From a virus (taxonomy: Duplodnaviria > Heunggongvirae > Uroviricota > Caudoviricetes), in the IMG/VR virus record IMGVR_UViG_2534681604_000014, positions 1 through 52,506 of that record: DNA of 52,506 nucleotides; one strand, written 5' to 3'. Under the pieces are notes generated by a model. The model searched no databases. It worked only from the letters and a program-made list of their open reading frames with translations, and was not told the origin of the DNA. Positions within the stretch are counted from its first letter, which is position 1. The number at the start of each line of letters is the position of its first letter. Shown piece after piece: positions 5,163 to 34,054 of this stretch. The position numbers were made by a program, and so were the translations under genes.

Positions 5163-5165
5163 ATA

Positions 5166-5337: not shown

Positions 5338-5521
5338 TGTCATGCCATCGCACAGCCATACGTAGCACATAGCTCCGAGATCAATGGTAGTGCTGGCTGG
5401 GCTGCCGAAAGGCAGGCCGGTTCCCTTTTGCGCCGGTAGTTCCAACCCAGTCAGTGCTACCGCCATTGAGATTGGAACCTCACGCGGTAGCTCCTTAAGT
5501 TAGCAAAAGGAGGCTGCCATT

Positions 5522-5743: not shown

Positions 5744-6855
5744 GAACGTCATTAGTCACCCGTGAAGAAATGATTGAGGCAATTGAACAGCACACAGCCT
5801 GTATCAGTACCAGGGATATACCGGGCGTTATTGCCAACTACTTCATGATCACCAAACAACTTTACCGGAGAAAGGACAAGAACGCGGTTCACCGCATTCT
5901 GCTAACCGATATCCGTGAATACCTGCTCGAACAGGGTCATCTGAATTACGCAACCGTCGCAGCCGAAGCACGCAAGGAGGCACACAGAATGAAAGCAACT
6001 AACGTTAAATCAGAAAAAATTCATGCAACTTCAGTTCAGGAATCAGAGCTGGTGGTTGTTCAGAATCAGTCTGATGAAATTCCCGTTCTGGAATGGCTGG
6101 GAGTGCGTGTAGTGACAACCAAGATCCTTGCTAAGGGGTATGGGACCGATGCGGATAACATCAAGAAGAACTTTTCCCGTAATGCCGAACGTTTTTGTGA
6201 AGGCAAGCATTTCTATAAAGTTATTGGAGATGATTTGAACAATTTGCGGGTGACTTTAAGTAACTCACAAAATCCCATCTCTCCTAAAGCCCGTTCACTC
6301 ATCCTCTGGACAGAACGCGGCGCTGCCCGTCACGCTAAAATGCTCGAAACCGATCAGGCATGGGCATTCTTTGAAAAACTGGAAGACAGCTACTTCCGGC
6401 AAAAAGAACAGCAACCGGTTGCAATCCCCCAAACATTACCAGAAGCCCTACGCCTGGCTGCCGAACTGGCTGAACAAAAGCAGCTTCTGGAACAGAAAGC
6501 CCACCAGCTAAATCAGCAGCTGGTAGCCGCCGCTCCTAAGGTCGATTTTGCCGACCGGGTATCAGTAGCTAAAGGGATCCTGATTGGGAATTTTGCAAAG
6601 GTTGTTGGACTTAAGCAAAACGCGCTGTTTGCCTGGTTACGGGAGAACGGCATCCTGATAGCGTCCGGCGGACGTAAAAATGTGCCATTCCAGCAGTACA
6701 TCAACGCCGGGTATTTCACTGTGAAAGAAGTGGTGCTAGATGATGAAGATGGCTACCAGATACGGCTGACGCCTCAATTAACGGGGAAAGGCCAGCAGTG
6801 GTTGACGCGTAAGCTGCTCGATGCTGGCTTGTTAAAACCGGTGGCGGCTGAATAA
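5740..6855 (+). CDS. antirepressor (AntA/ORF6N-like N-domain, KilAC-like C-domain), Ant1/Ant2-like
   Basis: 371 aa (about 42 kDa); internal in-frame ATG at 5989 with SD AAGGAGG gives 288 aa (about 32 kDa); C-terminal region looks like a KilAC/ANT domain. Confidence 0.65.
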   Translation: MRTSLVTREEMIEAIEQHTACISTRDIPGVIANYFMITKQLYRRKDKNAVHRILLTDIREYLLEQGHLNYATVAAEARKEAHRMKATNVKSEKIHATSVQESELVVVQNQSDEIPVLEWLGVRVVTTKILAKGYGTDADNIKKNFSRNAERFCEGKHFYKVIGDDLNNLRVTLSNSQNPISPKARSLILWTERGAARHAKMLETDQAWAFFEKLEDSYFRQKEQQPVAIPQTLPEALRLAAELAEQKQLLEQKAHQLNQQLVAAAPKVDFADRVSVAKGILIGNFAKVVGLKQNALFAWLRENGILIASGGRKNVPFQQYINAGYFTVKEVVLDDEDGYQIRLTPQLTGKGQQWLTRKLLDAGLLKPVAAE

Positions 6856-6887
6856 TGGAAGAATGCCCGGTTGATGCCGGGCATAAT

Positions 6888-7739
6888 TTATTGCGCGCTT
6901 TCGGGGTTGTCGTTTACTGGCTGCCCCTTCTTAGTTTTACGGCTGCGCGTAACTGATGCGGCTGACTTAACCTTTTTCTCTTCGCGAGTGATGGCAATTT
7001 GTTTTTTTACATTTTCAATATCTGCCAGGCGATATATTTTTGCCTGCGGCCAGCGGTCGCAGATGATCGGTTCTATGGAGTCATAAAGGCTAAATTTTGC
7101 TTTCTCGAATTCACCGTTGATGATGATTCCATCACGGAGAGTTTCATCGCAGATAAACACGCCACACAGCGGCACATGGTAACTAACTGATTTACCGTTA
7201 TTGTAGTTAGGACTACTGGAGATGTAGTGAACGCGCAGCATTGTTTCGCTAAAGCCGTGTACGCGCATACGGAATTTTTCATCCTCCGGGTACTGCTTCA
7301 TTAGCTCTTTTGTTGCTTCCAGGTTCTCTATGTATTTCGCACTGTGCTCATTGAACCCCGCGCTTTTTTGGATGCGAATGTCCTTATCAATCAGATGAAT
7401 AATGCGGCCAGCGGTCATGTTGACGCTGTTTACAGCTTCTGTCTGATAGGTCGTAACCTTACGCACACCGCGAAGGATGTTAGGCACAGGATATAAAATA
7501 GTCTTTGGGATATTGAGGTCTGGGTACTGTTCCAGTTCCCGCGCCATTAAAGTCCATTTATCAATTTCAGCCTGAATGCTGTCCGTTTCTTTGAACGGCA
7601 GAACGACAACCGGGCGTACAGGACGACCGTCGCTGGCGGCATCAACGTGTTGGGCGCGTGCAACAGCTTTTTTTAGAAAGAGATCCCTGAAGCTGACGAA
7701 CTCCTGGTACAGTTGTTCGCCGTAGACATAATTTATCAT
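6888..7739 (-). CDS. c1: C1 repressor of lysis
   Basis: 283-aa ORF recognised as P1 C1 (MINYVYGEQLYQEF...); strong SD GGAGGAGG upstream. Confidence 0.95.
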   Translation of the reverse strand: MINYVYGEQLYQEFVSFRDLFLKKAVARAQHVDAASDGRPVRPVVVLPFKETDSIQAEIDKWTLMARELEQYPDLNIPKTILYPVPNILRGVRKVTTYQTEAVNSVNMTAGRIIHLIDKDIRIQKSAGFNEHSAKYIENLEATKELMKQYPEDEKFRMRVHGFSETMLRVHYISSSPNYNNGKSVSYHVPLCGVFICDETLRDGIIINGEFEKAKFSLYDSIEPIICDRWPQAKIYRLADIENVKKQIAITREEKKVKSAASVTRSRKTKKGQPVNDNPESAQ

Positions 7740-15316: not shown

Positions 15317-15318
15317 GA

Positions 15319-17256
15319 TTAGTTCCTCACCACCAAATCTAACTCAATAGATTTTTTATTAGCATAACTTTTCAGGGCTTCATTGAGTTCCATTTGTTTT
15401 GCGCTATCAAAATTACAGCCATAAAACACAACTTTGTGTGGTGCAAAGTCTTTGTCTGAATCCAGCTTTTGAAGTAATGCTTTCAGTGCTTCGCTGGTAA
15501 AATTAGTTTCGATCAAATACAAACGACTATCGCACAAATGTGCTTTGTAGCCACTAAGATCAACATCTTTAATCGGTGTTGTTAGCAGGCTGCCATCATA
15601 CAGACACCATGTAGTCAATAAGGCATCATACTGTTCAGGAGTTAATACTACATCATCAAAGAATGTATGATTAGACAGCGTAAGTTCTGACTCATCTTTG
15701 ATGCGAAAATCTGTCATTAATTGGTAAATTTTAAAGCCAAACTTACCGCTTCCCTCACAAACTCTAATTAATCTTTCTTTGGTTAGGTCATAAATGGTTT
15801 TAAAACCATGCTTAAAAGCGTCAGAATTATCTTTTGTATCCTCATCTAATTGAACAGTTATGAATTGATAATTCATGCCTTTTTCTTTGTTTAAGTTTAA
15901 AATAGCATGCGCTGTTGTACCCGAACCTGCAAAAAAATCCAATACAATACCTTTGCCATCACATGCAAAAGAGATCAATTCTTCAAGTAGTTTAATGGTT
16001 TTAGGGTTAGTGAAAGGCTTAGTCATTTCAGGGAAAATTGCTTTTAGCTCATTAGCCCCGGCTCGACCATCAATATTAATAACAGAACTTAACTTCTGCT
16101 TATAATCTTTAGCATAAACCTTTATTTCCACTAATTTATTTTCATCTTCACCAAAGATAATCCGCCCATCATCAATCATTTTTAGCATAGTAGCTTCAGG
16201 GAAGCGATATCCCATCAAAGGCTGCTTGCAAGGTTTCTTTGTTATTGGATGAATAATATCATACCGATATCCTTCTTTACCGGGGTTATGAATCCCCCTC
16301 TCCCCAGAATATACACCTTTACGGTCTATAAACTTATAATTTTCCAGAGGCCATAATTGACTTTTGTTTTCTCTAAACCACTTTGTGTACTCTTCCTGTA
16401 ATTTTTCGTCATCTTTTATGTCATTAATTAATGAATCGCCTACTTCAACAAGCAAATCCTTTACATCTGAGATGTTTGACTTCCACTCAGTTTCAATTAA
16501 TTCTTTATTTCTAGCATAAACAACAATATATTCATGTTCTACAGCAATGTTCGAAGGATTGTTATCTGTAACATTTTTCCAGACGATGTCTCCGATGTGA
16601 TTTTGTTCACCAAAAATCTCATCGCAAACTAGCTTTAATTGACTAAACTCATTGTCATCAATAGAAATAAAAATAGTCCCATCTTCTCTCATTAATTCAC
16701 GAGCAATATAAAGGCGTGGGTAAATGAATGTCAGCCATGCACTATGACTGCTTGACCCCTTGGTGGTAAATTCTAATATGCGTTTAGCCTCATCGAGGTC
16801 GATGCCTGCTAGTTCAGAAAGCTGCTCAGGTGTAAATTTGCGATCATCATTATAAACGAACCCATCCTTACCTGTATTGTATGGTGGGTCAATGTAAATC
16901 ATCTTCACCTTTTCAGCGTAAGCATTAACCATATGCTTCAATACTTCGAGATTATCCCCTTTGATTAACAGGTGTTGACTGTTCTTGTTCTCTTCTTGTT
17001 GGTTATGAGTTTTATCTTCTGCCAACAACGTTTTCGGTGGTAGATTGGCCAACAAACGGGCATAAGATTTACCCAGCCAGTTCAAGCTGTATGATTCTTT
17101 AGAGAGTTCAACTTCCGATGCCCTAATAATCTCAAGCAATTTTTCTTGAATGAAGGCTCCGTTTTTATCAAAACACTGAGGGAAATTAGCTTTCAACACA
17201 GCCAGTTGCTTGCTGTTAGCCGTTTCTACTTCGGAAAAAATCGTTTCTTTTTTCAT
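15319..17256 (-). CDS. mod: type III Mod N6-adenine methyltransferase
   Basis: 645 aa from ATG 17256 (MKKETIF...); DPPY motif before the FAGSGTT motif (beta-class order); an upstream in-frame ATG at 17277 is possible. Confidence 0.9.
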   Translation of the reverse strand: MKKETIFSEVETANSKQLAVLKANFPQCFDKNGAFIQEKLLEIIRASEVELSKESYSLNWLGKSYARLLANLPPKTLLAEDKTHNQQEENKNSQHLLIKGDNLEVLKHMVNAYAEKVKMIYIDPPYNTGKDGFVYNDDRKFTPEQLSELAGIDLDEAKRILEFTTKGSSSHSAWLTFIYPRLYIARELMREDGTIFISIDDNEFSQLKLVCDEIFGEQNHIGDIVWKNVTDNNPSNIAVEHEYIVVYARNKELIETEWKSNISDVKDLLVEVGDSLINDIKDDEKLQEEYTKWFRENKSQLWPLENYKFIDRKGVYSGERGIHNPGKEGYRYDIIHPITKKPCKQPLMGYRFPEATMLKMIDDGRIIFGEDENKLVEIKVYAKDYKQKLSSVINIDGRAGANELKAIFPEMTKPFTNPKTIKLLEELISFACDGKGIVLDFFAGSGTTAHAILNLNKEKGMNYQFITVQLDEDTKDNSDAFKHGFKTIYDLTKERLIRVCEGSGKFGFKIYQLMTDFRIKDESELTLSNHTFFDDVVLTPEQYDALLTTWCLYDGSLLTTPIKDVDLSGYKAHLCDSRLYLIETNFTSEALKALLQKLDSDKDFAPHKVVFYGCNFDSAKQMELNEALKSYANKKSIELDLVVRN

Positions 17257-17421
17257 ATCCATTTTAAACCAGATCATTTAGCAACAAAGCGCCGCCTCCC
17301 CAGCCCACTAGAGCCAGAAGTTGTCACACTTATACGAGGGCACTATCACTATCTATATGTTTGAATAATCGTTTTTCTTTGAGCGATGCTCGGCGAGCAA
17401 ACAGCCATAATTTGGGGAAGT

Positions 17422-17670
17422 TTAATCCGCATTGAGAAGCAATGCATTATCTATGATGATCTGCTCCCATTCTTCGAATGCCCGATCGCGGACCCCCTGG
17501 GGAACACTGTTTGTTTTGAAATCAACGACTGTCCGCCATTTCCCGTCCGGACGGTACATGCGCAGAGCTTTACTGCCCCCTTCCCTTCGCACCTCAACGT
17601 TATGCTTGTCAGCAAACTCTTGTAATGCTCGTAGCGTCCCATGCTTTACTGTGTAGTATCGCTTTTTCAA
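17422..17670 (-). CDS. lxc: Lxc/Bof C1 co-repressor
   Basis: 82-aa ORF (MKKRYYTVKHG...) upstream of ulx-darB as in P1. Confidence 0.65.
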   Translation of the reverse strand: MKKRYYTVKHGTLRALQEFADKHNVEVRREGGSKALRMYRPDGKWRTVVDFKTNSVPQGVRDRAFEEWEQIIIDNALLLNAD

Positions 17671-18107
17671 GTTTTCTCTCCAGCCTGTGCCAAGGCTTCA
17701 ACTTCCAAATCGTAAGACTCAAACTCATAGTCTTGGTCGTCAACTTCTTCAGGCACTGGCAGTAAATGCCAGGCTGAGTATATCTGACCATTATCAAAAC
17801 GCTCCTGGCTGTAGAGCGTCGCGGCTATGAGTGTTAGCGCCGGGCGGTCATAACGGTAAATTTTGCGAACGTCACGGTCAACGAGACGACCGAAATTACC
17901 ATAACCGCGCTCCAGTAATAATTTTTTAATTTCCGGCCAGTATGGGCCATAGCTGCGGTACAGGCGGGGATTTTTAAGCAATCGCCCGCGTAGCCCTGAC
18001 AGGAAGAAATCAACGTATTCGTCTTCTGTCTTTCCTAACAACGCCGTACGCAGTACCGCCTCAAGATATGTTTTATTCGGTTTTATTGTATCAGATAGTG
18101 TGGACAT
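17667..18107 (-). CDS. ulx: Ulx
   Basis: 146-aa ORF between darB and lxc; 4-nt overlap with lxc. Confidence 0.6.
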   Translation of the reverse strand: MSTLSDTIKPNKTYLEAVLRTALLGKTEDEYVDFFLSGLRGRLLKNPRLYRSYGPYWPEIKKLLLERGYGNFGRLVDRDVRKIYRYDRPALTLIAATLYSQERFDNGQIYSAWHLLPVPEEVDDQDYEFESYDLEVEALAQAGEKT

Positions 18108-18140
18108 ATTATGCGACGCCCGGCGAACCGGGCGCTCCTG

Positions 18141-21100
18141 TTATGCGTATTGTTGGATGACGGCCAGAACGTCCGCCACGTTGTGTTTTGTCTCGATAAT
18201 CCACCAGTTACCCGGGAAATCGCTGTTCTTCGCCTTCGCTGGCAGCCAGCGAGCGCCGAATTTCGCCTTGATTGCGTCTTTCGCACGGAAAAGAATGCCT
18301 TTCATGCCGGACGCCTCCTGAAGCCCAAATACCTCGCCAGCGGCGAATTTTGGTGCGTACATCATCTTCAGGTCGGCGGTGGATACGCGATAATTCAGCC
18401 CAAGAGACTGAGCTATGCTGGTGGCATCACCCTGTATTGATGATAACTCTTCTTGTTTCTCGTTTCTGGCGGCAATTTCTTCCTCCGTGATGTTGCCTAG
18501 GGCCAGGTTTATCCGATCAGCGTCGGCCTGTTTCTCTTCATCGGTGCGTCCGGCAAGAACCGTGTTAATTCTCTGCAATATCTCCACATGATTCTTGCGC
18601 ATGCTGAGCAATTCCGGCGTAACCTCGTTAAGGTCCACCAGCCCAAGGATGGCAAGGTCGGAAAACATTGATACCAGGTTGTAGGTCATGCGATAGCTGA
18701 GTTGGCCATAGGCTGATGGCAACTGCACCGAATCCATTTTATAGGCATCCATAAATTTAGAGCCGTCGTTTACGACTTCCGCAATTGCAGGTGTGATTTT
18801 CCCTGTGGTGGCGGCCTCCCTGATTGCTGTTACCCACGATTGAGTCAGCGCGGCGACTGCATGATTCAGATTGGCTTTCCGTTCTGCTGCAATGCGCGCG
18901 CTTGCAGCGTCCATTGCCTGCTTGATCTCGTCTTTATTGCTGTAAATGCCAATGGTGCCAAACTGTGCTGTGGTGATCTCAAAGTCTGACGCCCGGAACT
19001 CATTAATACCGAAAATGGCATTGGTGACCTCAAGTTCAGAATCACCGTTACGGGTAGCCCCCTGGCTTGTTTTCTCCGGCATTCTGGCGATCGCATCCGC
19101 TATTTTCTCCTGAATTGCTTCAGGGGATAGCGTATCTCCGTATGACGCGATTACATCGCCATAATTGGAGCCAAACAGTTCAGTCAGGAATACTTCTGCC
19201 AAACGGACCTGGCGGTTATTCCCTTCCGACATCATACCAAGCACCCATTTAGCAATTGACGACTTCAGGGCGCCGTCACGGCGATCCGGATAAACCGCAT
19301 GCTTCAGCGGGTCCGTATAGGTACCAACAAAATCAATGCTGTAGCCTGACTCTGTAGTCTGAACGCCGTATGAGTCAGTGATTTTGATCATGCCGCGCTG
19401 CTGGAAACGGTAGAAATCGTCACAGGAAATGATGTCGTTAATCCCGGCGATGGAGACGCCACCACTGATTTTCTGCATAACAGCATCTTCATCGGGAGTT
19501 ACATCCACCTGTTTATCCAGCGTCTTCACATCCCAGTTACCCGATTTGGTACCTTTGAAGGTAAAGATAATCTCCACGTCTGCGCGCTGGCTGTCGAAGT
19601 CCAGCGACTTAATGCGAACGATATCACCGGCACAATCGTAGTATTGGCCTACACGCCATGAGCGATCGCCGATAACAAGGAACTCATTCGCATGGTTAAC
19701 CAGATCAGGATCAACATCCAGAATGCCTTTATTTATTGCATCCTCCACCAGCGGGCGCAGGCGTTTGATATCCGTCGCGGCCTTCTGAGTACGGTTCAAT
19801 AATTTCTCATAACGGGAGATGGCCTGAGAGATATTAGCCTTGCGCTGAATGGCGCTTTTCAACGACGCGCGATACTGTGCTAACAACGTACGGTCTGTGT
19901 GATGGACGCTACCCCAGCGGGCCTTCCAGTCTGCGTTATCAGCTGCTTTGGCCATTGCCGCCTGTTTGAATTTAGCTACCTCGGCGGTGGTCTTTTCAAG
20001 TTCCGCTTTGCTTCGCTCTAATTCAGCGGTAAGTACCTCCACATCCTCGCCAGCTGCGTGCTGCGCCTTGATGTAGTTCTGAAGGTCGATAGTAGCCTGT
20101 TCTTTCTGGCGAGCGCGTTGCGCGGCTTTCGCCTTATCCATTTGAACCTGCATCATTGCCAGACGTTCGCCGTCATCCTTCGCGGTATACATCTGCATTT
20201 CGATCATGTCATTGGCGTCGGCGTTCTCCATTTCTGACTTATCTGAACGGAGGATATCGGAGATCCAGCCTGCTTTACGCTTCAGCGTCTTCAGTCGGTA
20301 TTCATCGAAAGAACCCTTGCCGCAGTAGTAGTGAACGCGAACGCTTGCACGGTTGGAGCCAACTCGGGCACCGCGACCGTTTCGTTGCGCAATACTGGCT
20401 GGAGTCCATGGCAACGTCAGATGATGGATGTCAGTCGTTCCTCGATGCAGGTTGATACCCACCTCTGCCTTTTTGTTGCAGATGATGATCGGAGTCCGGC
20501 CCTCCTGGAAGTCGGCTGCAATCTTTTCCAGACCGCCCAACGACATTTCATTTTGCTGCGCGATATAGGCGTCATACAGAGCCATTTGCTCGTTGTATTT
20601 CGCTATCTGTGCATCTGTTGGTTCATCCGATAACTCTTTCGGCGGTTTAACCGCTTTCAGTTTCTTACCGGTTTTACCTGCCTCGGCAACCGTCTGAGCA
20701 TTCAGGATCCCCACCTTTGAAGGTTCAAGGTTAAGAGCATTGCAGATAATGCGCTTGAGTTTCTGGTGCTGCGTTTTTTCGTCCGTGAAGATGATTTGCT
20801 TACCTTCCGGGAAAAACTCCTTCAGCGTGGCGATCAGCTTCGCGTATTTGGGTGTAACGGGGTGAGTTACGGTCTGTTCGTCAATGCCAAACCTGGCCAG
20901 GCGCTTATTCACTTCCTGCTCGAACGCTTCCGGAACCTGCAACTGAATAAACTCGCCCTTATCTATCAGGGAGTATTGCGATTGCTGCGTGATTGAATCA
21001 TCACTGTCGTCGTCTTCGCTGGTGGCTTGTTTAGGCAAACTGTCCGCCAGCTGCTGCACCGCATCGGCGTACTCCGGCAGGAAACGATAGGTGATCCGGC

Positions 21101-24100
21101 GATAGTACAGGTCCATGTCAGTACATACGCGGTCCATATCCCTGATTATTGAGAAGATCGGACGGGCTTTCTCGTGCTCAATCACGCCGTCTTCATTGAC
21201 CGAGGTCGTTACGCCATTGTTGGCTTTTGCTGCCGCTTCCGCCTGCTGACGCAATTCTTCATACGCCGCCAGTTGTTCTTCAGTAAGTGGTGCATCCTGC
21301 TGGTGTTCGTCCAGTTCCGGGATCTCCACGGTATCCTTAACGTCTTCCGCCGTTTTAAGCGTTGTCCAGCGATGGAATATGCCGCGCAGCGCATCAAGGT
21401 TTTCAAAACCCACCAGCGCCATTTTTTCTTCAACTTCACCGCTGATTTTCTGTACCGTTTCCAGCCTGGTCTTGCCGAAGAATTTAACGAAGTCATCAGG
21501 ACCGTAGATCCCCATCTTCTGCCAGTATTCCTTCGGCAGAACATGAGAAAGCATGTTGTATGCATCGATCGGGGTGTTAACGACTGGCGTTGCAGTCAGG
21601 AGAACCGGTCCGCGCCCGCCATTCTTTTTCATCAGGTACGCGTTTTTGATTGCCATATCTCGCGCCGATTGCGCCACCGCGCTGGTGGGCAGATAGGCCA
21701 GCTGTGACGCTTCGCGACCATTTTTATAGCTATTGCGGTAGTTGTGGCCTTCGTCAGCAATCACGCTGTCGAAGCCCATATCCTCAAAGTACGGATACTT
21801 CTCTGCTTTTTCGGTACCGGTATCTGAATACTCCGACAATACCCGGCGACGCGCCGCCTCTTTGCGGTGGGAGTCGGAGTCCATTGCGCTGGCTACGCGC
21901 CCGGCAGCAACGAAGTCATAAAGCATATCCTGTGCATGCTCATCTACGGTGTCATCACGTAGCGGAATGCGGGCGTATTGTTCTTTGGTAAACACGACTG
22001 CACGGTAATTTGAGTGCGGGATCGCATTCATCCGCGCCGTGATAGTGGCTTCATCTGCCAGTTTAAGGGCATCGCGCATAACTGGAGTACCATCAGTACC
22101 AAGAACAGGTTTACCGTTCTCATCGAGCACCGGCACCTGGCGAATCTGATCGCTGTCCATCAGTACATCCAGACCGACGAACAGGTAGTTACTGAAGGCT
22201 TCTTCACTCAGGAACTCTTTTGCTTCGTAATACCAGTTTTCCAGCACTGATTTAGGCACTACATAAGCAGTACGGGTGGAGCGACCGTTCTCATAGTTGA
22301 ACGCCTCAAGCGCCAGCGCGGTCGTGGTTTTACCCAGCCCGGTACCGAAGCCCAGGATGCCGCGCCCATCTTCGGACAGTCTGCGCACCTCGCTATTCTG
22401 GTAATCAAATGGCTGTCGCTTACCGCTTAATCCCTTCAACCCAAGCGGATCGCCAGAGTGTTCATACGGGATATTGCTATTGAAAACATCGTTGTATTTG
22501 GCAACCAGCTCATCGTAGCGATCGTGCGTCTTGATCCACTTATTGAACTGGTCCTCAAGCAGTGCCATCTGCTCGCGGTAGCCGTTCGCCGTCGCGCTAT
22601 CTTTTCCACCGATACGCGCACCATTGAGATACTTTTCCAGCTGTGCCGGGAACCCGGTCGCGTTTTCACCTGATTTACGGTCCCACTCGTAGCGGATCTC
22701 GCCTGTTTCTTTATCCTTGCGCTGGACGACACCGTATCGGTGCCCGACGAACAGACCATCACCACCGTGATAGGTGTCAGAAACCATTTCGTCGCCTTCC
22801 AGCTGCACTGACTGCACATAGCGCAGATCCGGATAGCCGTTTTCCTGCAAAAACTCCAGAATGACGGAGCGGTCGAACCAACGGCTATTGAGCTTAAAGC
22901 GGATATTCTCTGCTGGCGTCTTGATGCGCTTCTCTTCGATCGCTGCCAGCTGATTAAGGACGTTGTTCTTTACTGGACCGTCGGGGAGTGTGGCAAGGAA
23001 TTCCTGTTTTGGAGCCACTATCTCGTTAATGTCGCCGCTGGTGGCGCGGGCGAACGGAACAATCCCGCCATACGGTGAAACCGCAATACCAGGGGTGCTG
23101 GCCAATAAATTAAGCAACTCTTCATCACTGGCTGGCAGTTCGCCGGTAAACGCAAGGCGGAAATCATCGAGCTGGATTGGATCGCGGGTAAGATCGCTAT
23201 AGAGATAACGCAGGGTGTCCTGATAGCTGGTGGAGTCATAACTGGCGCTGGAATCATGCGTAACCAGCTTTCCTGTCAGCTCGTCAGAAATAGTGCCATC
23301 CAGCTTAATTGCACCACGGAAAGCAAACCAGGCGCGCGCACCGCTTCCCGATAATTTAGCTATCGGACCGCGACCGGGGTTACCAAAACGGTCAATCTCT
23401 GCCTGCAAACGGGATACCAGAGAAAGGCGCTGCTGTTCGATTTGTTCAGCACTATGCCCGGCGGCCTTCATGTCCTGATATTCAATTAACATCCGGCCAA
23501 TCATCGCCCCGCGATACAAGCGTTCACGGTATTTTTCAGGCTGGCTGTTAATCCAGTCCACCAGCTGCACCATATCGTCGCTGATTGATGTGGTGTACTT
23601 ATCGCGGACATTTGCCATCTGGGTAAATGTCATACCGAGACGGCCTTCTGTTGTAGTCAGGTTACGCTGAAGAGCCTCCCAGCTATCCGCGCCATAACTG
23701 GCAGCATCAATCTTAAGCTCCTTACCAGCATCAGCTTCAATCCAGCGACCACCAGCATATTTTTGCCATACGCCATTAATCAGGCGCATTTCCCCTTCAT
23801 CAACAACATCTGCGGTCGGTGACGGTTCAGCCATATCGAGCAAAGACCAGTCGATACGACTTTCGAAACGATGAATCAGCTTCGCTTTAAGAGCCTGGTT
23901 ATCAATCTGCCCGTCGGCACGAACCTCAATACGCCCCTGGAATCCCTTCTCCTGGGTGCCATGAACAAACCGGCGGCCGTCCTTTTCAAACCACTTGCCA
24001 GAAATAAACGTTGGCCAAAGCACATTTGCCGATTCAAGAGTGCTTTTATCCACCAGGGGGATTTTCTCAGCCATCTCTGCCGAATGTTTGCGCATCAGCA

Positions 24101-24908
24101 CCACATCAACGACTGTACTGGTCCCGTTTGCGTCAAAAGTACCGGTAGGCAAGCGGTGAGCGCCAAGAAATTCAGCTTTCCGTGATAGGCGCAGGCGTAA
24201 CCGCTTCATGTTTGAACCTGAAACAATGGACGGCGGCACAATCACACACATGAATCCGCCTGGCTTTATCTTGTCCAGCATGCGGAGCATGAAGTAAGAC
24301 CCCATGTCCGTTTCTTCTGCGTAAGGCTTATCGATGTTGCGTGTGTTATCACGACCGCCGAACGGAACGTTACCCACAACATGGTCGAATGAATCGTTAG
24401 GCGTGCTTACAGCCAGTTGTTCGAACGGGGAAATCTGTACGCTGTCTTCCGGATGTAACAGCTGGTTTATACGACCGGAAACACTGCTGATCTCAGTCGC
24501 GGTCATCACCGTACCAACCGGTTTTGTCTCATTAAAAACGCCGGTGCCCGCCGATGGTTCCAGAGTGTTACCTACGTCCGCGCCGTAGAGCTTCATGATC
24601 TCCCAGACACCTTCAGCGATCGGCTTTGGTGTGTAATATTCGGAGACGGACCCGCCAATGCCGCCTTCACCAGTGTACCCGGCCAGGATCTGGCGCTGTT
24701 CATCTGTCAGTGTCGCGCCGTCCACCAGTGAATTAAGCAAATCTATCGCCTTCTGATTCGCCTCCCGGCGCAGTCGGTCATAGCTTTTGCCTTCCACCTT
24801 TTCCACGCCGTATTTAATCGGCGCTCGGTGAGATGCTATTGCCCTAATGTATTTCAATATTTCGCTGACACTTGAACAGCGAAACACCCCCATAGATAGC
24901 TTGTTCAT
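18141..24908 (-). CDS. darB: DarB anti-restriction protein (N6-adenine MTase plus SF2 helicase)
   Basis: 2255 aa; MTase motifs EPSAGTG and NVPFGG; helicase GLGKT and DEGH. Confidence 0.9.
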   Translation of the reverse strand: MNKLSMGVFRCSSVSEILKYIRAIASHRAPIKYGVEKVEGKSYDRLRREANQKAIDLLNSLVDGATLTDEQRQILAGYTGEGGIGGSVSEYYTPKPIAEGVWEIMKLYGADVGNTLEPSAGTGVFNETKPVGTVMTATEISSVSGRINQLLHPEDSVQISPFEQLAVSTPNDSFDHVVGNVPFGGRDNTRNIDKPYAEETDMGSYFMLRMLDKIKPGGFMCVIVPPSIVSGSNMKRLRLRLSRKAEFLGAHRLPTGTFDANGTSTVVDVVLMRKHSAEMAEKIPLVDKSTLESANVLWPTFISGKWFEKDGRRFVHGTQEKGFQGRIEVRADGQIDNQALKAKLIHRFESRIDWSLLDMAEPSPTADVVDEGEMRLINGVWQKYAGGRWIEADAGKELKIDAASYGADSWEALQRNLTTTEGRLGMTFTQMANVRDKYTTSISDDMVQLVDWINSQPEKYRERLYRGAMIGRMLIEYQDMKAAGHSAEQIEQQRLSLVSRLQAEIDRFGNPGRGPIAKLSGSGARAWFAFRGAIKLDGTISDELTGKLVTHDSSASYDSTSYQDTLRYLYSDLTRDPIQLDDFRLAFTGELPASDEELLNLLASTPGIAVSPYGGIVPFARATSGDINEIVAPKQEFLATLPDGPVKNNVLNQLAAIEEKRIKTPAENIRFKLNSRWFDRSVILEFLQENGYPDLRYVQSVQLEGDEMVSDTYHGGDGLFVGHRYGVVQRKDKETGEIRYEWDRKSGENATGFPAQLEKYLNGARIGGKDSATANGYREQMALLEDQFNKWIKTHDRYDELVAKYNDVFNSNIPYEHSGDPLGLKGLSGKRQPFDYQNSEVRRLSEDGRGILGFGTGLGKTTTALALEAFNYENGRSTRTAYVVPKSVLENWYYEAKEFLSEEAFSNYLFVGLDVLMDSDQIRQVPVLDENGKPVLGTDGTPVMRDALKLADEATITARMNAIPHSNYRAVVFTKEQYARIPLRDDTVDEHAQDMLYDFVAAGRVASAMDSDSHRKEAARRRVLSEYSDTGTEKAEKYPYFEDMGFDSVIADEGHNYRNSYKNGREASQLAYLPTSAVAQSARDMAIKNAYLMKKNGGRGPVLLTATPVVNTPIDAYNMLSHVLPKEYWQKMGIYGPDDFVKFFGKTRLETVQKISGEVEEKMALVGFENLDALRGIFHRWTTLKTAEDVKDTVEIPELDEHQQDAPLTEEQLAAYEELRQQAEAAAKANNGVTTSVNEDGVIEHEKARPIFSIIRDMDRVCTDMDLYYRRITYRFLPEYADAVQQLADSLPKQATSEDDDSDDSITQQSQYSLIDKGEFIQLQVPEAFEQEVNKRLARFGIDEQTVTHPVTPKYAKLIATLKEFFPEGKQIIFTDEKTQHQKLKRIICNALNLEPSKVGILNAQTVAEAGKTGKKLKAVKPPKELSDEPTDAQIAKYNEQMALYDAYIAQQNEMSLGGLEKIAADFQEGRTPIIICNKKAEVGINLHRGTTDIHHLTLPWTPASIAQRNGRGARVGSNRASVRVHYYCGKGSFDEYRLKTLKRKAGWISDILRSDKSEMENADANDMIEMQMYTAKDDGERLAMMQVQMDKAKAAQRARQKEQATIDLQNYIKAQHAAGEDVEVLTAELERSKAELEKTTAEVAKFKQAAMAKAADNADWKARWGSVHHTDRTLLAQYRASLKSAIQRKANISQAISRYEKLLNRTQKAATDIKRLRPLVEDAINKGILDVDPDLVNHANEFLVIGDRSWRVGQYYDCAGDIVRIKSLDFDSQRADVEIIFTFKGTKSGNWDVKTLDKQVDVTPDEDAVMQKISGGVSIAGINDIISCDDFYRFQQRGMIKITDSYGVQTTESGYSIDFVGTYTDPLKHAVYPDRRDGALKSSIAKWVLGMMSEGNNRQVRLAEVFLTELFGSNYGDVIASYGDTLSPEAIQEKIADAIARMPEKTSQGATRNGDSELEVTNAIFGINEFRASDFEITTAQFGTIGIYSNKDEIKQAMDAASARIAAERKANLNHAVAALTQSWVTAIREAATTGKITPAIAEVVNDGSKFMDAYKMDSVQLPSAYGQLSYRMTYNLVSMFSDLAILGLVDLNEVTPELLSMRKNHVEILQRINTVLAGRTDEEKQADADRINLALGNITEEEIAARNEKQEELSSIQGDATSIAQSLGLNYRVSTADLKMMYAPKFAAGEVFGLQEASGMKGILFRAKDAIKAKFGARWLPAKAKNSDFPGNWWIIETKHNVADVLAVIQQYA

Positions 24909-24974
24909 TGGTAATCCTTAACAAGTGACTAGTGTTAAATTCCGTTAAAACACGATGCGAATTATTCTAATTAA

Positions 24975-27706
<2,732 letters not shown>

Positions 27707-27717
27707 CCACCAAAAAT

Positions 27718-27739
27718 AACCCCGGCGGCTGCCGGGGTT
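27718..27739 (+). terminator. stem-loop after pro
   Basis: AACCCCGGC-GGCT-GCCGGGGTT. Confidence 0.5.
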
Positions 27740-27997
27740 CTCGTTAACTATTATCGCCTTCGTCTGCGTGCCATATATTTGCGCACCGCTCGACGTGGGC
27801 AATCTGAAGCGGTTTCTTTCTGCTGCATCAATCTTGCAGCCATGCTCAAAAATGTCAGGCACAGCCGAAGCCCGGCATATAATAGCGGTTCCAGTGGCCA
27901 CGTCTCATTGAGCACATATACCGCCATGAAAATCGAGTCGAAAACTATCGCCGCCAGCGATAACTTCATTGTCGAAAGTCGGCGGAGCTGCCGGAGT

Positions 27998-28555
27998 TTA
28001 TTCATTGACTAGCCCCGTCAGGCAAAGCTGGCGTTCTTTTTCACGGCGAATCTTTAAACCTCGCAAGGGCACGCCGTTACTGTTCACGAAATCAGGGAGA
28101 TGGTTACACATATTCACCCATTCCCCTTTCTGCGCCCACTTGTGGATGGACGTTTCGACTCGCATGCCTCGCGCTTTGCTGTAGTAGGTCCGTAAACTAT
28201 TGCATCCCATATTGAATGCCGCGCTTGTCATTGCGCTGAAGGCATTATCGGGCATGTTTTTGCCCCGGAAGTGCTGATTAATACAGCGTTCAGCGATCAG
28301 GATATTCTTTTCCCAATCAGCGGCGATTTGCTGGTCTGTTTTTCGCACACCCGGCGTTACCCCGTGTGTATTACCGATCCCGTCAGTCCATACCCCCGCC
28401 GGGCACATGTATGGATCACGTCGGCAACCTTCAGCGTTACCAATCAGCTCAAGCCCCGCCTGGTTGGTTCGCACATTGCCATTACCCATCACGATGGTAA
28501 TCATCACCGCGATAGCGCAAATTGCACCGCCTCCTGCGGCTGTTTTTCCCTTCAT
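27998..28555 (-). CDS. lyz: SAR endolysin Lyz
   Basis: 185 aa from the internal ATG (MKGKTAAGGGAICAIAVMITIVMG...), a Gly/Ala-rich signal-anchor-release segment. Confidence 0.85.
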   Translation of the reverse strand: MKGKTAAGGGAICAIAVMITIVMGNGNVRTNQAGLELIGNAEGCRRDPYMCPAGVWTDGIGNTHGVTPGVRKTDQQIAADWEKNILIAERCINQHFRGKNMPDNAFSAMTSAAFNMGCNSLRTYYSKARGMRVETSIHKWAQKGEWVNMCNHLPDFVNSNGVPLRGLKIRREKERQLCLTGLVNE

Positions 28556-28688
28556 AAAGACCTCATAAGCGAATTTTTTACGCTCCAGGACAAACACTAA
28601 TTCACAGCCAATACTGACTGACTCGATCCCTTTAGAAGGCACAGGATAATGCAAATCACTTGTTAGCTACGTTTCAAAGATATACATT

Positions 28689-28705
28689 ATTGCTCTAATT
28701 AATTT
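28689..28705 (+). promoter_or_regulatory. C1 operator upstream of ssb
   Basis: ATTGCTCTAATTAATTT, 16 of 17 to consensus. Confidence 0.7.
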
Positions 28706-28724
28706 CCTTTATTAGGTAAGATAA

Positions 28725-29213
28725 GTGGCACAACGCGGTGTAAACAAAGTCATCCTGATTGGTACCCTGGGGCAAGACCCGGAGATCAGGTATATACCAA
28801 ATGGCGGAGCGGTCGGAAGACTCAGCATCGCAACGAATGAATCATGGCGCGACAAGCAAACGGGCCAACAGAAAGAGCAAACAGAATGGCATAAAGTCGT
28901 TTTGTTCGGAAAACTTGCTGAAATTGCGAGTGAGTATTTACGAAAAGGTTCTCAGGTCTACATCGAAGGGAAACTTAAAACCCGTAAGTGGACAGATGAC
29001 GCCGGTGTAGAACGTTACACGACGGAAATTATCGTCAGCCAGGGCGGCACCATGCAAATGATCGGCGCTCGCCGTGACGATTCACAGTCCTCAAATGGCT
29101 GGGGGCAATCAAACCAACCTCAAAACCACCAGCAATACAGCGGTGGTGGTAAACCTCCGAGCAACACCAATAACGAACCTCCAATGGACTTTGACGACGA
29201 TATTCCGTTTTGA
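28725..29213 (+). CDS. ssb: single-stranded DNA-binding protein
   Basis: 162 aa, GTG start, OB-fold-type sequence, acidic tail DFDDDIPF. Confidence 0.9.
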
Positions 29214-29500
29214 GAGGACTGGAAGCAGCTAGATTGCTTAGGGAGAATATATTCCGTGCGAATGAATTTGATCAGAACATTACCTGCACAATGCGTGCTG
29301 AAGTTCAAACTGTAGCCATAGTCAATACCAGAAGCCTGTTCAGTGAACTCTTGATAACATGTGAACTTTATTTAATCGCTATTTTTAGCGTTAAAAATAA
29401 CATTGCCTAGCTGGTGTGAAAAAATGGGCGCAACAAAGCGCCCCAACAGTAGAGTATTCAAATCAATAAAAGGGTAATAAATAACATGAAGTTAAATTGA

Positions 29501-29525
29501 GAAGAGGCAAGGTTATTGCCTCTTC
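29501..29525 (-). terminator. stem-loop downstream of the porin gene
   Basis: GAAGAGGCAA-GGTTA-TTGCCTCTTC, 10-bp stem. Confidence 0.5.
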
Positions 29526-29601
29526 AAAAGGTGACATGAGGGTGCCACCTATATGCGGGCAGTGACATTACTTCCTTCCCGCATATTCTTACCTAACCAA
29601 A

Positions 29602-30717
29602 TTAGAATTGGTAGGTCATACCAACAGCAACGATGTTGTCGGTTGCAACTTTAGATTCTTTGGTAAAGTCACTTTCATCAATCAGGTTGATCTTGTAGTC
29701 AACGAAAGCGGACATATTTTTGTTGAAGTAATAAGTCGCACCCAAGTCGATGTATTCAACCAGATCCTGGCTGCCGAACTCACCAATATTTTCACCGCGA
29801 GAGTGCAGATAAGCGATGGACGGACGCAGGCCGAAATCAAACTGGTATTGAGCAACAGCTTCAAAGTTTTTCGCCTTGTTCGCGATAAAGTCATCACCGA
29901 AGACAGTCATATTCTGAGTTTCAGAATAAGTTGCAGCCAGGTAAATGTTATTTGCGTCATATTTCAGGCCAGTAGCCCATACTTCAGCAGTTTTACCAGA
30001 AGCATTCAGAGGATCTTTTTTAGCATAGGATTCCTGCCCATCAGTACGATCAGATTTTGCATAGGTTGCACCAACGCCAAATCCTTCATAATCGTAAGTA
30101 GCAGACAGACCAAAGCCATCACCATTAGATTCAACTACGTCGTCACGGCCTTTCCAGTTGTTCACTTTTGCAGCACTATCATTTTTACCTTGATACTGCA
30201 AAGCAAAGTTCAGACCATCAACCAGGCCGAAGAAATCATTGTTACGGTAGGTGGCTACGCCAGTAGCACGCTGGGTCATAAATACATCGGTCTGAGTCCA
30301 GGTATCTCCACCAAACTCAGGCAGCACGTCAGTCCAAGCGCCAATATCATAAGCTACACCATAGTTGCGACCATAGTCGATTGAACCATAATCAGCAAAA
30401 CGGAGGCCAGCAAATGCAAGACGAGTTTTATCTTTATCAGAGCCCTCAGATTCAGTACGGTTACCTTTAAATTCGTACTCCCACTGACCAAAACCGGTTA
30501 ACTGGTCATTAATCTGAGTTTCACCTTTGAATCCCAGACGAGCATAAGTCTTATCTCCGTCATCACTAGCTGAAGAAGAGAAGTAATGTTCTGCGTTAAC
30601 TTTGCCGTACAGATCCAGTTTATTACCGTCTTTGTTGTAGATTTCAGCTGCTTGCGCAGACATTGCCATCAGGACAGATGCTGCAACCGCAGAGAGTGCC
30701 ACTGTGATTTTTTTCAT
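29602..30717 (-). CDS. outer-membrane general porin (OmpC/OmpF/PhoE family)
   Basis: 371 aa; signal peptide ending AQA-AEIYNK; conserved porin blocks ([68 protein letters not shown]); C-terminal YQF. Confidence 0.9.
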
Positions 30718-30829
30718 TTTTTTTGCCCTTTAGATTGAACTTTTCAGTAGAAAAGAGGTCACTGCGGACAAATGTTTATCTTTTTTGGATTCGTGTTTCA
30801 AGTTTTGCAAATAAAAAACAAGATATTTT

Positions 30830-30845
30830 TGTGATCAAAATCACA
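30830..30845. promoter_or_regulatory. CRP-like palindrome upstream of the porin gene
   Basis: TGTGA-TCAAAA-TCACA, 113-128 bp upstream of the porin start. Confidence 0.4.
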
Positions 30846-31548
30846 AATAATGCCCTTAAAAATCCAATGGGCTATTGGAAAAATCTCAATTTACAGAATA
30901 AAAACTGACAAAACAGTTCAAAATACAATCAATAATAAGAGCAAGATAACTCACAATTAAATTAGCATAAAAATAATAACCACAAGAATAGATAGCATGT
31001 TAATTAACAAGGCAATTTTATTGGATGTAGATTTGAAATCTACTTAAAAAATATAATCAATTTAATTACGGTCCATTAGGTATTAAACTGAATCTATATT
31101 GTGAGAATTAAAGACGATGTGTTTTAGTTATACATGTTATTCCCTGGAAAAGAGACTTGCCTCATCGAATTCTTATTAATAACGAACCAAGTCAATTCAT
31201 TTTAGTATGTGTATCTATTTGCTCCCTGAATATGCAATGATGGTTAGACAAGTAAGATAGTGAGAATTAAAATTAATCAGGAGTCACTTGTTAATAAATG
31301 CAACTTAATTTTAACATCTCACACTGATTATAATATTTCCTGGAAGCCTTATGAATACATATTCTGATAACATACACAACCTTATCGATATAGCCAAATT
31401 AGCTGTAGCCATGAGGGAACATGGCTATTTTTTTCGCACTTCGTCGAGGAATAGATGTTAATTTTTGTGCTGATTTAAACGGGAGTGGCACACAAGGGAT
31501 ATTCATAAGAAAAAAAGTTTTAACGCGTATGAGCCAAGTTTTATTGAA

Positions 31549-31956
31549 GTGATTTTCGAACCCACTCATAAAAACGATGATTCATTTCTATACGAAGAGG
31601 ACCTTACTACCGATCAACGAAAAGACTACGAACCTAGTATTAACAGAGGAAAACATCGATTCGTTGCCCGACGTGCTAAGCTAAATCTCGACTGGGACAG
31701 TAATGAAATCCACCAATGGCGTTTGGATATTGAGCGACTTACTAAACCACACAACACTCTTAATGACTGGTTAAAAAATGATTCAGAGATAATGATAATA
31801 CATCGCTGCGGCGGTTATAGGTTCCGTGAACCTGTGATTCTCTCTCAAAGAGACATTAAACAATATGTAGCTTCAGGATTGACTCTGGAAGATTTAAAAA
31901 ATCGGCTAAAGTGCTCAATATGTGGTGAGCGAAACGCCAAAATTAAAGTTTTTTGA
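31549..31956 (+). CDS. hypothetical protein in AT-rich island
   Basis: 135-aa ORF, GTG start without a clear SD; C-terminal CxxC. Confidence 0.3.
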   Translation: MIFEPTHKNDDSFLYEEDLTTDQRKDYEPSINRGKHRFVARRAKLNLDWDSNEIHQWRLDIERLTKPHNTLNDWLKNDSEIMIIHRCGGYRFREPVILSQRDIKQYVASGLTLEDLKNRLKCSICGERNAKIKVF

Positions 31957-32067
31957 TCTACTTTAATAGCAAATGGCTTGCTTCCATAACCTAAAGCAAG
32001 CCACTACACATTTACCTTAAGTACACAATAACATACCAGAACAGGTTATTTTTGCACTATCAGGGAG

Positions 32068-32376
32068 TTAATATACTATCTGGTCTACATGATCACCAAA
32101 ATCATCGTCGTCGTCCTCATCGCCACCATCTACTGCTGGCCAATCAACAAACCAGCCAGCGTAAAGATGCAGCGTTCGGAGAACATCACTTGCGGGGGCA
32201 TCAAGGGTGTTAACGAATCCCATATAGCTATTGGGATTTGCTCCAGCTATGGCTTCAGCGATCATGTCCTCGGTAATGTCACCGGAGATAATGCTTAAAC
32301 GCCCGGAAACTTCTTCATTATCATCAAATTCTATAATGGCATCTCCGCCTAATGGCGCTGCGATTTTAATCTGCAT
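32068..32376 (-). CDS. hypothetical acidic protein (Asp-rich C-terminus)
   Basis: 102-aa ORF overlapping the upstream gene by 11 nt; GGDEDDDDDFGD tail. Confidence 0.4.
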   Translation of the reverse strand: MQIKIAAPLGGDAIIEFDDNEEVSGRLSIISGDITEDMIAEAIAGANPNSYMGFVNTLDAPASDVLRTLHLYAGWFVDWPAVDGGDEDDDDDFGDHVDQIVY

Positions 32377-34054
32377 TATTTAGCTCCTTTGCCACACCTA
32401 ATAACAGTTCCAGCAATCCGTCACCATTCATCAGTGATGCGGCAGCGGCCTCTTTGTCATGATACAACTGAAGAGCCATAGAGAATACTTCCGTTGCTGA
32501 CGTTTTGGAAATAGTCGGTGATTTCTGCCGAATTTTCCCGGAATTACTCACTGAGGCTGACGGGTATACCTTCGCCATATAAATATTACTCAATCGAGAT
32601 CTGAAGCACCATTCGGGCTTGCCACGCCCACCGATATTGACGAAAGATGGCTTATCCCCTTCAACATTGGCCTTCAGGAATGACCTGGCTTTCTCTAACA
32701 GACCAGGGTTACTGTACTCAAGATGATGACCCAGCTCGTGCCACAGTGCACTTGCATTTTTATCGTTCAAATTGACAGCAACAACACCATTAAGATTTGC
32801 ATATGCCCTTCCCTGGTGGTGAACCACCTTTGATAAGGTCGAAATTTTACCGCCGGTCAGGCGATAAATATCAGCAAGTTCCTTGCGCAGGTCTATCCCA
32901 CCATTCTGTCCAGCGCGGGCTTCTTCCACTTCTTCCGTGATAAAAGAGTCGGCCCACTCAAGAGCTTTTTCTTCAGATACGGATGAGTTGGCGATCGCAC
33001 TGTTCATGGCAGATAACACTTTCTCGTGGACCGAACCCATACTTTGCTGATTCATTTGCCAGCGTGTCTGCGGGTTATATGAGAATCGCTTAAGTAGTTG
33101 GTCAAGATGCTCAAGTTCTTCTTCACTGACATACTTTTTAGCCTCACCAATAATGCCAGGGAGAATATTGCCGTTAGGATTAAAGGCTCGCGAAAGGAAG
33201 AGTTTCAGCGCCCCCATGCCCTCCGATGCTTCAATATCACCAATAACCCGGTTAACAATGGCCGCACTCTTCGGATTAGCATCCGCCAACGCCCTGGCTA
33301 CAATTTGCAGGGACGATACGACCTCACGCTGCATATCCGTCCTGATCTCATCAATAAACTCTGGCGTTATGCCGTGCTCTTTAAGGATATCCCTGCCTTC
33401 CGCCGTTACCCCATCGATATCACCGACATGTTTATTAACCCGACTTTGCAATGCCTTAAATGCCTTCAGAATTCCACGGGCATCATCCGCTTTACTAACG
33501 GCCTTCCTGAATGCTGGCAAGAAGTCAGAGTTAACCTCATTTTGTTGATCGGCCCACTGAATGGAGGCTTCTTTCATCTCGTCCAGAGTCAGATCACCCA
33601 ACGCGGTATGGTCTGTGAATATGAGCGACAACCTCTGAACCATTTCTGCCAATGGTGATGCCGAATGCGCCGCGCTAAGGAATGCTTTCACCCTGGTTGG
33701 GCGAATGGAAAACCAGTCAATAGCTGGTGGCATATCTCCGTTTTTTATCGCCTGCGCTATCTCGTCAAAGCCATCGCGCCCAAGGGAGGATGCGTGATTT
33801 AACAAGCCGCGAAGTAACGAATTGCTGATACAGAATAATCGGCACCATTTTTTCACGTCGGCAACAGGCATTCGGACAAAATGCGCAAGCACTTGTACCA
33901 GCTGTTCATCCTGGAGATCTGTGCGGGAAAGCAGCCGGATCAGGTGAATAATATCTTTGATGCCGGATGCCCGATGTAATAACAAGCTGGTATATGGCGC
34001 AACACCGTTGTATCCGCTGCTGGTGGTCATAACTATCTGATCGTTTAAACTCAT
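32366..34054 (-). CDS. dar-operon protein with HExxH metallopeptidase-like motif
   Basis: 562 aa; WHELGHHLEY motif; sits directly downstream of ddrA where P1 has ddrB. Confidence 0.5.
   Translation of the reverse strand: MSLNDQIVMTTSSGYNGVAPYTSLLLHRASGIKDIIHLIRLLSRTDLQDEQLVQVLAHFVRMPVADVKKWCRLFCISNSLLRGLLNHASSLGRDGFDEIAQAIKNGDMPPAIDWFSIRPTRVKAFLSAAHSASPLAEMVQRLSLIFTDHTALGDLTLDEMKEASIQWADQQNEVNSDFLPAFRKAVSKADDARGILKAFKALQSRVNKHVGDIDGVTAEGRDILKEHGITPEFIDEIRTDMQREVVSSLQIVARALADANPKSAAIVNRVIGDIEASEGMGALKLFLSRAFNPNGNILPGIIGEAKKYVSEEELEHLDQLLKRFSYNPQTRWQMNQQSMGSVHEKVLSAMNSAIANSSVSEEKALEWADSFITEEVEEARAGQNGGIDLRKELADIYRLTGGKISTLSKVVHHQGRAYANLNGVVAVNLNDKNASALWHELGHHLEYSNPGLLEKARSFLKANVEGDKPSFVNIGGRGKPEWCFRSRLSNIYMAKVYPSASVSNSGKIRQKSPTISKTSATEVFSMALQLYHDKEAAAASLMNGDGLLELLLGVAKELNNAD

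Follow-up and report, generated by a model that had tools for sequence, protein, structure and literature searches.

The 52,506-nt stretch of DNA analyzed here (IMG/VR record IMGVR_UViG_2534681604_000014, hereafter called the window and always taken at its full length) belongs to a P1-like plasmid prophage in which an intact porin gene lies between the backbone genes ssb and hxr. The porin gene is followed directly by a structured 3' region resembling the IpeX RNA and is preceded by an AT-rich region with a consensus CRP site, a candidate promoter, and a spacer specific to P1-like elements. A relic of an isaA-like gene remains next to ssb, and a disrupted isaB gene lies beyond the spacer (Table 1). 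Based on the comparisons reported below, we interpret this module as a P7-type nmpC cassette that probably serves as a self-contained porin cargo gene.

The porin gene and the slot that holds it

An earlier, sequence-only reading of the window had described a complete porin of the OmpC/OmpF/PhoE family with 371 residues, a signal peptide, and a C-terminal YQF, and our analysis of the open reading frame (ORF) bore this out. The ORF matched Pfam PF00267 (Porin_1) with 494.8 bits (E = 1.9e-148; cutoff, 23.7) and covered profile positions 1 to 337 of 337. Among the NCBIfam models, it scored above the cutoff of the OmpC subfamily (529 bits versus 484) and under those of the PhoE and OmpF equivalogs (493.5 versus 599 bits and 453.3 versus 583 bits, respectively). 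Solved chains of OmpC, OmpF, and PhoE from the PDB aligned with the porin from residue 24 to its C-terminal Phe, and because these mature chains start at residue 24, residues 1 to 23 are assigned to the signal peptide. Both the loop-3 PEFGG motif and the C-terminal YQF were found. The protein is a full-length member of the OmpC/OmpF/PhoE superfamily. Given 61 to 63% identity to OmpF and OmpC of E. coli K-12 and the end-to-end alignment with structural chains, it is predicted to form a trimeric 16-strand beta-barrel in the outer membrane.

At the protein level, identity was 99.5% to the porin of the Escherichia fergusonii P1-like plasmid pRHB31-C17_2, 95.1% both to NmpC of phage P7 and to a chromosomal copy in E. 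coli GTEN_97, 83.0% to a chromosomal copy in E. coli O111:H8, and 81.0% to Lc of phage PA-2. The K-12 porins were more distant (PhoE, 65.2%; OmpN, 64.4%; OmpC, 63.1%; OmpF, 60.7%). The window porin is nearer to Lc and NmpC than to any of them, and by these identities it is of the NmpC/Lc (OmpD-like) type. Lambdoid phage porins had been proposed as its kin, and Lc/NmpC are indeed its nearest relatives outside P1-like elements. Compared with Lc, the window porin differs by a 7-residue insertion ("VNNWKGRDD") and a divergent segment following it; from the alignment with OmpC, these variable segments are likely to be external loops.

The ratio of nonsynonymous to synonymous substitution rates (dN/dS) of the porin was 0.07 to 0.12 in comparisons with P7, the chromosomal copies, and PA-2, with dS values of up to 1.9, and therefore the gene is maintained by selection. 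Between the window and P7 (L001, 3048-4163), the porin alleles showed a dS of 0.24, well above the expectation from the flanking backbone, which is 95 to 98% identical. This excess points to an exchange of alleles by recombination within the slot.

In pairwise blastn comparisons, homology to P1 ended at the stop codon of ssb (29213) and restarted at 31220, the base that directly follows the right inverted repeat of IS1 in P1. Because homology breaks off and resumes at these positions, the module at 29214-31219 replaces isaA and IS1 of P1. The porin had been thought to stand in place of isaB and hxr; in fact hxr is intact and isaB is still there. Judged by its flanking genes, the slot is the known variable region of P1 and P7 between ssb and hxr (isaA-IS1-isaB), defined as RD-2 in PMC6906374 and called region 2 in PMC9603915. 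In published work, isaA-IS1-isaB counts as a variable part of P1-like elements with low GC (PMC6906374, PMC9603915, PMC5786510). What remains of isaA in the window is a short piece of the 3' end of an isaA-like gene, with 76% nucleotide identity to P1 isaA and 54% amino acid identity over 35 residues (IsaA 267-301), and the same result was obtained across plasmids.

The reference P1 genome is without the porin, as the sequence-only reading had presumed for this site. That P1 homology restarts exactly where the right inverted repeat of IS1 ends on its outer side fits a history in which an adjacent deletion mediated by IS1 removed the porin cassette from the P1 lineage. A composition unlike that of the backbone had likewise been claimed, and it was confirmed: the fraction of G+C (GC) is 0.28 at 30718-31350, 0.44 in the porin coding sequence, and 0.38 in isaB, against 0.48 to 0.49 in the flanking lyz-ssb and hxr-ddrB segments.

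The implied novelty of the porin did not hold. The P7 record (AF503408) annotates "nmpC, NmpC precursor" (protein AAQ07495) at exactly this site, between ssb and odaA (the P7 name of hxr) and in the same orientation, and window positions 29391-31240 matched the P7 module with 91.6% identity by blastn. The P7-type cassette likewise consists of an IpeX-like 3' region, the porin, the CRP site, and the AT-rich spacer. P7 differs in that it is without the segments corresponding to 29241-29390 (isaA relic) and 31241-31847 (most of isaB), whereas the window keeps a full-length, frameshifted isaB. Between their ssb and hxr genes, the P1-like phages JL22 and phi456 likewise have a porin gene, with 98.4% identity to that of the window. 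Taken together, P7 nmpC and the genes labeled ompC or ompD in JL22, phi456, and pRHB31-C17_2 occupy the same slot in the same orientation, with porin identities to the window of 95 to 99.5%. The full query, comprising the porin, isaB, and both junctions, was matched at 97 to 99% identity by ten plasmids, mostly from E. fergusonii, in which isaB is likewise full length. With pRHB31-C17_2, the window is collinear over 17424-34012 (98.7% identity).

The porin module was present in 131 of the 502 P1-like plasmids of PLSDB (∼26%), counting as P1-like those that hold an adjacent lyz-ssb backbone. Within P1-like phages and plasmids, porin identity was 98 to 99.5%, and the sequenced P1-like plasmids that carry the same gene, under the labels ompC, ompD, or nmpC, number well above one hundred. 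The presence of P7 nmpC in RD-2 has been noted before, including a copy cut by IS10 in pSvP1 (PMC6906374). The literature that we searched yielded no functional work on the P1/P7 porin. By position and content, then, the feature is an already known one, the P7-type nmpC cassette in RD-2 of a P1-like phage-plasmid.

The core of the cassette (∼29391-30850) was also found on E. coli chromosomes, flanked by insertion sequences (IS). The chromosomal cores of GTEN_97 (L006, 6001-7454) and O111:H8 (L007, 5001-6468) include the IpeX-like region and the CRP site; they do not belong to a prophage and are bordered by TnpB remnants and by IS elements of the IS3, IS1, IS4, and IS110 types. Their location between IS elements suggests IS-assisted movement of the cassette.

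The IpeX-like RNA and its predicted targets

Downstream of the porin, the sequence-only reading had noted a single hairpin and had placed the left boundary of the cargo at 29501. The hairpin is real, with a G+C-rich stem at 29426-29443 followed by a T run, and it is the Rho-independent terminator at the end of a larger element that comprises three further stem-loops and a single-stranded stretch and that extends to about 29419, beyond the proposed boundary. This element, which begins directly after the porin stop codon, is homologous to the DNA directly 3' of nmpC in prophage DLP12 and of lc in PA-2. The DLP12 and window copies are 72% identical over 173 aligned positions (E = 4e-13), and the window copy has a 19-nt insertion, also in comparison with PA-2. 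We take the DLP12 region directly 3' of nmpC to be ipeX as originally described, and by this homology the 3' region of the window is a homologue of IpeX. Later papers citing the original description give a length of 167 nt for IpeX of DLP12, versus 183 nt in the window, and report that IpeX of DLP12 and PA-2 is released from the porin transcript and represses the synthesis of OmpC and OmpF. For elements of the P1/P7 type, we found no published IpeX homologue.

The window copy folded with a minimum free energy of -62 kcal/mol (z score, -5.2). When P1-type and lambdoid-type copies were folded independently (z scores, -4.5 to -10.7), they showed the same order of elements: a long stem-loop, a 7- to 8-bp stem-loop with a CCCUCA loop, a 9- to 11-bp stem-loop, an unpaired A/U-rich stretch, and the terminator. 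In a model-based alignment, 87% of cells were paired and 7 pairs carried a change in both partners (5 of 500 shuffles). Helix 2 was 100% paired with 3 compensated pairs; the counts for helices 1 and 3 understate pairing, because realignment with the covariance model left the lambdoid register uncorrected. Altogether, these models point to a conserved secondary structure in the IpeX-like region.

The covariance model matched solely 3' of NmpC/Lc-type porins and had no match beside ompC, ompF, phoE, or ompN of K-12, which share the superfamily and fold of the window porin (61 to 65% identity) but differ from it by the absence of this 3' element. An Rfam scan of 28600-32500 gave sub-threshold chance matches alone, to GcvB (26.8 bits versus a gathering threshold of 42, driven by the terminator) and to a snoRNA. 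Rfam, which holds no IpeX family, also had no match to the DLP12 ipeX region, so this negative result is uninformative.

The best-conserved unpaired stretch between P1-type and lambdoid-type copies is a candidate seed of the RNA (Table 1). We searched for the longest perfect complements between the IpeX-like RNA and porin leaders and compared them with those of shuffled sequences, which average 7-nt matches. In K-12 ompF, the seed has a perfect complement of 14 nt that starts at the Shine-Dalgarno sequence and ends with the A of the AUG; none of 300 shuffles reached this length. Its complement in ompC, which involves an overlapping part of the seed, covers 11 nt around the AUG, a length reached in 3 of 300 shuffles. 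The leaders of phoE, ompN, and the cassette's own porin showed complementarity at background level only. In the PA-2 copy, the contiguous match to ompF is 9 nt instead of 14. Duplex energies of the whole-length 3' RNA with the porin leaders gave meaningless long-range duplexes and were discarded.

The 5' part of the MicF RNA is the portion that pairs with ompF. The seed has the 12-mer UUAUUUAUUACC in common with this part (micF positions 17-28), so that the window RNA would place against the ompF ribosome-binding site the same 12 nt as MicF does. Both RNAs are also physically linked to the gene of a porin that would replace OmpF, MicF being encoded upstream of ompC. The two RNAs have no overall homology; MicF is encoded by a separate, divergently transcribed gene, whereas the window RNA is the 3' end of a porin transcript. 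The shared 12-mer could be a convergence imposed by the common target. From complementarity alone, the IpeX-like RNA is predicted to lower the amounts of host OmpF and OmpC.

The upstream region and neighboring genes

The region upstream of the porin contains the sole perfect match to TGTGA-N6-TCACA in the 52.5-kb window (0.06 expected), centered ∼120 bp upstream of the porin ATG. P7 shares this candidate CRP site letter for letter, and the chromosomal copies nearly so; in alignment, it coincides with the CRP site given in the PA-2 lc record (J02580). Catabolite control of the porin by cAMP-CRP through this site is predicted. A candidate sigma-70 promoter, TTGAAA-17-TAAACA, is kept as a block in P7 and in the chromosomal copies; in PA-2 and DLP12, TTGAAA is kept, the -10 element is TGAATA, and the spacer differs. 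Relative to this promoter, the CRP site would lie near -71.5, a class I position.

PA-2 lc and DLP12 nmpC resemble the window gene in having a CRP site ∼120 bp upstream and, more generally, a regulatory site and a terminator of their own. DNA identity between the window and these two loci is 74 to 75% and ends 64 bp upstream of the ATG. They differ in their carrier, which is lambdoid in PA-2 and DLP12 and a P1-like plasmid prophage here, and the window gene lies outside a Q-to-lysis late region. In the porin upstream region (30718-31350), we found no C1 operator with up to 3 mismatches and, on the porin strand, no late-promoter -22 box; control by the P1 C1 repressor or by the late activator was rejected on these grounds.

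The AT-rich spacer has homologues at 98 places, 96 of which are on P1-like plasmids (84 to 99% identity), and its right end coincides with the point where P1 homology restarts at the right end of IS1. A divergent small RNA or a hidden gene in the spacer was considered and rejected, as the spacer has no terminator and no conserved ORF, with homologues almost only on P1-like plasmids.

The AT-rich region without ORFs had been measured as 830 bp, followed by an ORF of unknown function. Since isaB begins at 31351, the truly intergenic part is 633 bp (30718-31350), and the ORF (135 codons, 31549-31956) is the 3' two-thirds of isaB. The isaB frame is broken twice, by a +1 change at 31428-31434 (T7; T6 elsewhere) and by a -1 change at 31510-31516 (A7; A8 elsewhere), 83 bp apart and with two in-frame stops between them. 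The exact T7 variant, searched as a 32-mer, had no match in two large collections (genome_contigs and viral_contigs). The pair of frameshifts is either a private mutation, making isaB a real pseudogene, or a homopolymer sequencing error. The T7 run doubles as the tail of a terminator-like hairpin at 31405-31428, and a comparable +1/-1 pair occurs at 44729 and 44777 of the window. The predicted PisaB promoter of P1 maps to 31245-31273.

Table 1. Features of the ssb-hxr slot and its surroundings (positions in the window)
Feature	Position	Strand	Remarks
lyz	27998-28654	-	
C1 operator Ossb	28689-28705		Perfect
ssb	28725-29213	+	Left-hand backbone mark
Relic of the 3' end of an isaA-like gene	29253-29339	+	Sits in spurious ORF 29210-29410
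IpeX-like structured 3' region	29419-29601	-	183 nt, directly after the porin stop; three stem-loops, single-stranded stretch, Rho-independent terminator
Candidate seed of the IpeX-like RNA	29471-29490	-	5'-UUCAUGUUAUUUAUUACCCU-3'
NmpC/Lc-type general porin gene	29602-30717	-	371 aa; ORF intact; Pfam, NCBIfam, PDB alignment
Porin signal peptide	30649-30717	-	Codons 1-23; cleavage between SAQA and AEIYNK
Candidate sigma-70 promoter of the porin	30773-30801	-	TTGAAA-17-TAAACA; predicted only
CRP consensus site	30830-30845		Perfect; TGTGATCAAAATCACA
AT-rich spacer	30846-31219		GC 0.27; specific to P1-like elements
isaB, disrupted	31351-31956	+	606 nt, the length in P1; identity to isaB of P1 and of an E. 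fergusonii plasmid, 96-99%
hxr (odaA in P7)	32068-32376	-	Intact, 102 aa; right-hand backbone mark
ddrB	32366-34054	-	

Elsewhere in the window, ddrB (32366-34054) encodes 562 instead of 995 residues, having lost approximately residues 13 to 447 of P1 DdrB in frame; the remainder is 97% identical to P1 DdrB, and the junction lies at 34012/34018 relative to pRHB31-C17_2. Between a terminase-like ORF (3678-5162) and c1 (6888-7739) lies a 371-aa ORF (5740-6855, plus strand) with ORF6N and KilAC antirepressor domains, in a stretch (5160-6889) that has no counterpart at that position in pRHB31-C17_2. A type III restriction-modification system (Res, 970 aa; Mod, 652 aa) occupies 12404-17277 on the minus strand, in the res-mod variable region as in P1.

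What the cassette may do and which alternatives compete

The cassette shows sequence traits of a moron: it has its own terminator, a regulatory site with a candidate promoter, and a GC content lower than that of the backbone, and it is not in P1. We favor, with a probability of roughly 0.6, the view that this P7-type nmpC cassette is a self-contained, catabolite-controlled cargo gene for a "porin swap". Under this proposal, a host-type, CRP-activated promoter would let the plasmid prophage express the porin free of both C1 repression and late control. The mRNA would encode a trimeric general porin of the NmpC/Lc/OmpD type, exported by Sec and inserted into the outer membrane, and its structured 3' part, the IpeX homologue, would be released, pair with the host ompF and ompC messages at their ribosome-binding regions, and lower the synthesis of both porins. 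As a net effect, the phage porin would replace OmpF and OmpC, so that permeability would change and the receptors of other phages and of colicins would be removed. That lysogens transcribe the cassette, that the 3' RNA is processed, that OmpF and OmpC are repressed, and that a phenotype follows are steps that we infer. The sequence-only reading had already suggested lysogenic-conversion cargo, which is reasonable since the porin has its own CRP-type site and terminator and no P1 operator or late box.

A stronger version of the porin swap would make the cassette an active two-part device in about a quarter of P1-like phage-plasmids, with one mRNA yielding both an NmpC-type channel and an IpeX-like RNA that silences OmpF and OmpC through a seed that matches ompF better than the DLP12/PA-2 prototype does and that has the 12-mer of MicF. 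We put this version forward tentatively, at somewhat less than an even chance.

Several observations weigh against the porin swap. The upstream region has a GC content of 0.27 to 0.28, and DNA of this kind is silenced by H-NS. The candidate promoter fails a simple promoter scan, which missed it because its -10 element is weak. The covariation in the IpeX-like RNA is backed by only two or three sequence types, and the alignment did not capture the shifted register in which the lambdoid type pairs its helices 1 and 3. The porin is dispensable, P1 being without it, and the copy in pSvP1 is interrupted by IS10 (PMC6906374). In the reference list of PMC3333887, nmpC and ompN are called quiescent porins in laboratory E. 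coli. Finally, reviews conflict on IpeX, one stating that it does not act by complementarity alone and others that its action depends on Hfq and on pairing.

Some of these points would be expected if the cassette were a silent passenger, that is, an intact porin gene, normally unexpressed (silenced by H-NS and "quiescent"), that is carried within a hot spot of recombination and, in ordinary circumstances, does nothing in the lysogen. The low upstream GC, the absence from P1, the IS10 insertion in pSvP1, and the quiescence ascribed to nmpC in the reference list of PMC3333887 all agree with such a passenger, as does the fact that the low-GC variable slot holds unrelated cargo in other P1-like elements. 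However, the porin has been under strong purifying selection, with dN/dS of 0.07 to 0.12 at dS values of up to 1.9, the CRP site has kept its position, conservation extends to the structured 3' RNA with its anti-ompF/ompC stretch, and ∼26% of P1-like plasmids carry the cassette. We consider a silent passenger unlikely, while regarding it as the most serious competitor of the porin swap.

It is also conceivable that the porin acts without the RNA. The 3' region would then be a stabilizing 3' untranslated region with a terminator and no action in trans, and OmpF and OmpC would be affected solely through competition for assembly. That the stretch complementary to ompF is AT-rich, in a test where shuffles already average 7-nt matches, would suit this explanation, and so would the absence of a curated IpeX family from Rfam and the inconsistent accounts of the IpeX mechanism in the reviews. 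Yet the 14-nt match to ompF was reached in none of the 300 shuffles, the stretch is single stranded in the folds, it shares 12 nt with the ompF-binding part of MicF, and it is the best-conserved unpaired part between P1-type and lambdoid-type copies. A porin acting alone thus appears quite improbable to us. Finally, misassembly of chromosomal porin DNA onto a P1-like contig, for which one might invoke the related cassettes (93% identity) between IS elements on E. coli chromosomes and a few homopolymer length differences in the window that might be sequencing errors, has a negligible chance and was ruled out, since both junctions recur in P7 and in at least ten complete plasmids and the window is collinear with pRHB31-C17_2 over 17424-34012.

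The porin swap thus remains our preferred interpretation. The value of the cassette as a discovery is small, as a porin at this site is already annotated in P7 (AF503408) and in many P1-like plasmids. The corrected map, the purifying selection, the exact junctions, and the broken isaB add useful but incremental annotation. Beyond these, the cassette offers two functional candidates that had not been annotated, namely, the CRP site and the IpeX-like 3' RNA directed toward the start regions of ompF and ompC. In farm animals, E. coli, E. fergusonii, and Salmonella are frequent hosts of P1-like elements, which often bear resistance genes. If the porin swap works in lysogens, these elements would alter the outer-membrane permeability of their hosts and the receptors open to phages or colicins. 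Under the stronger, two-part version, lysogens would have an altered permeability to beta-lactams and other solutes and would resist OmpC- or OmpF-dependent phages and colicins, which would be relevant because P1-like elements also spread resistance genes.

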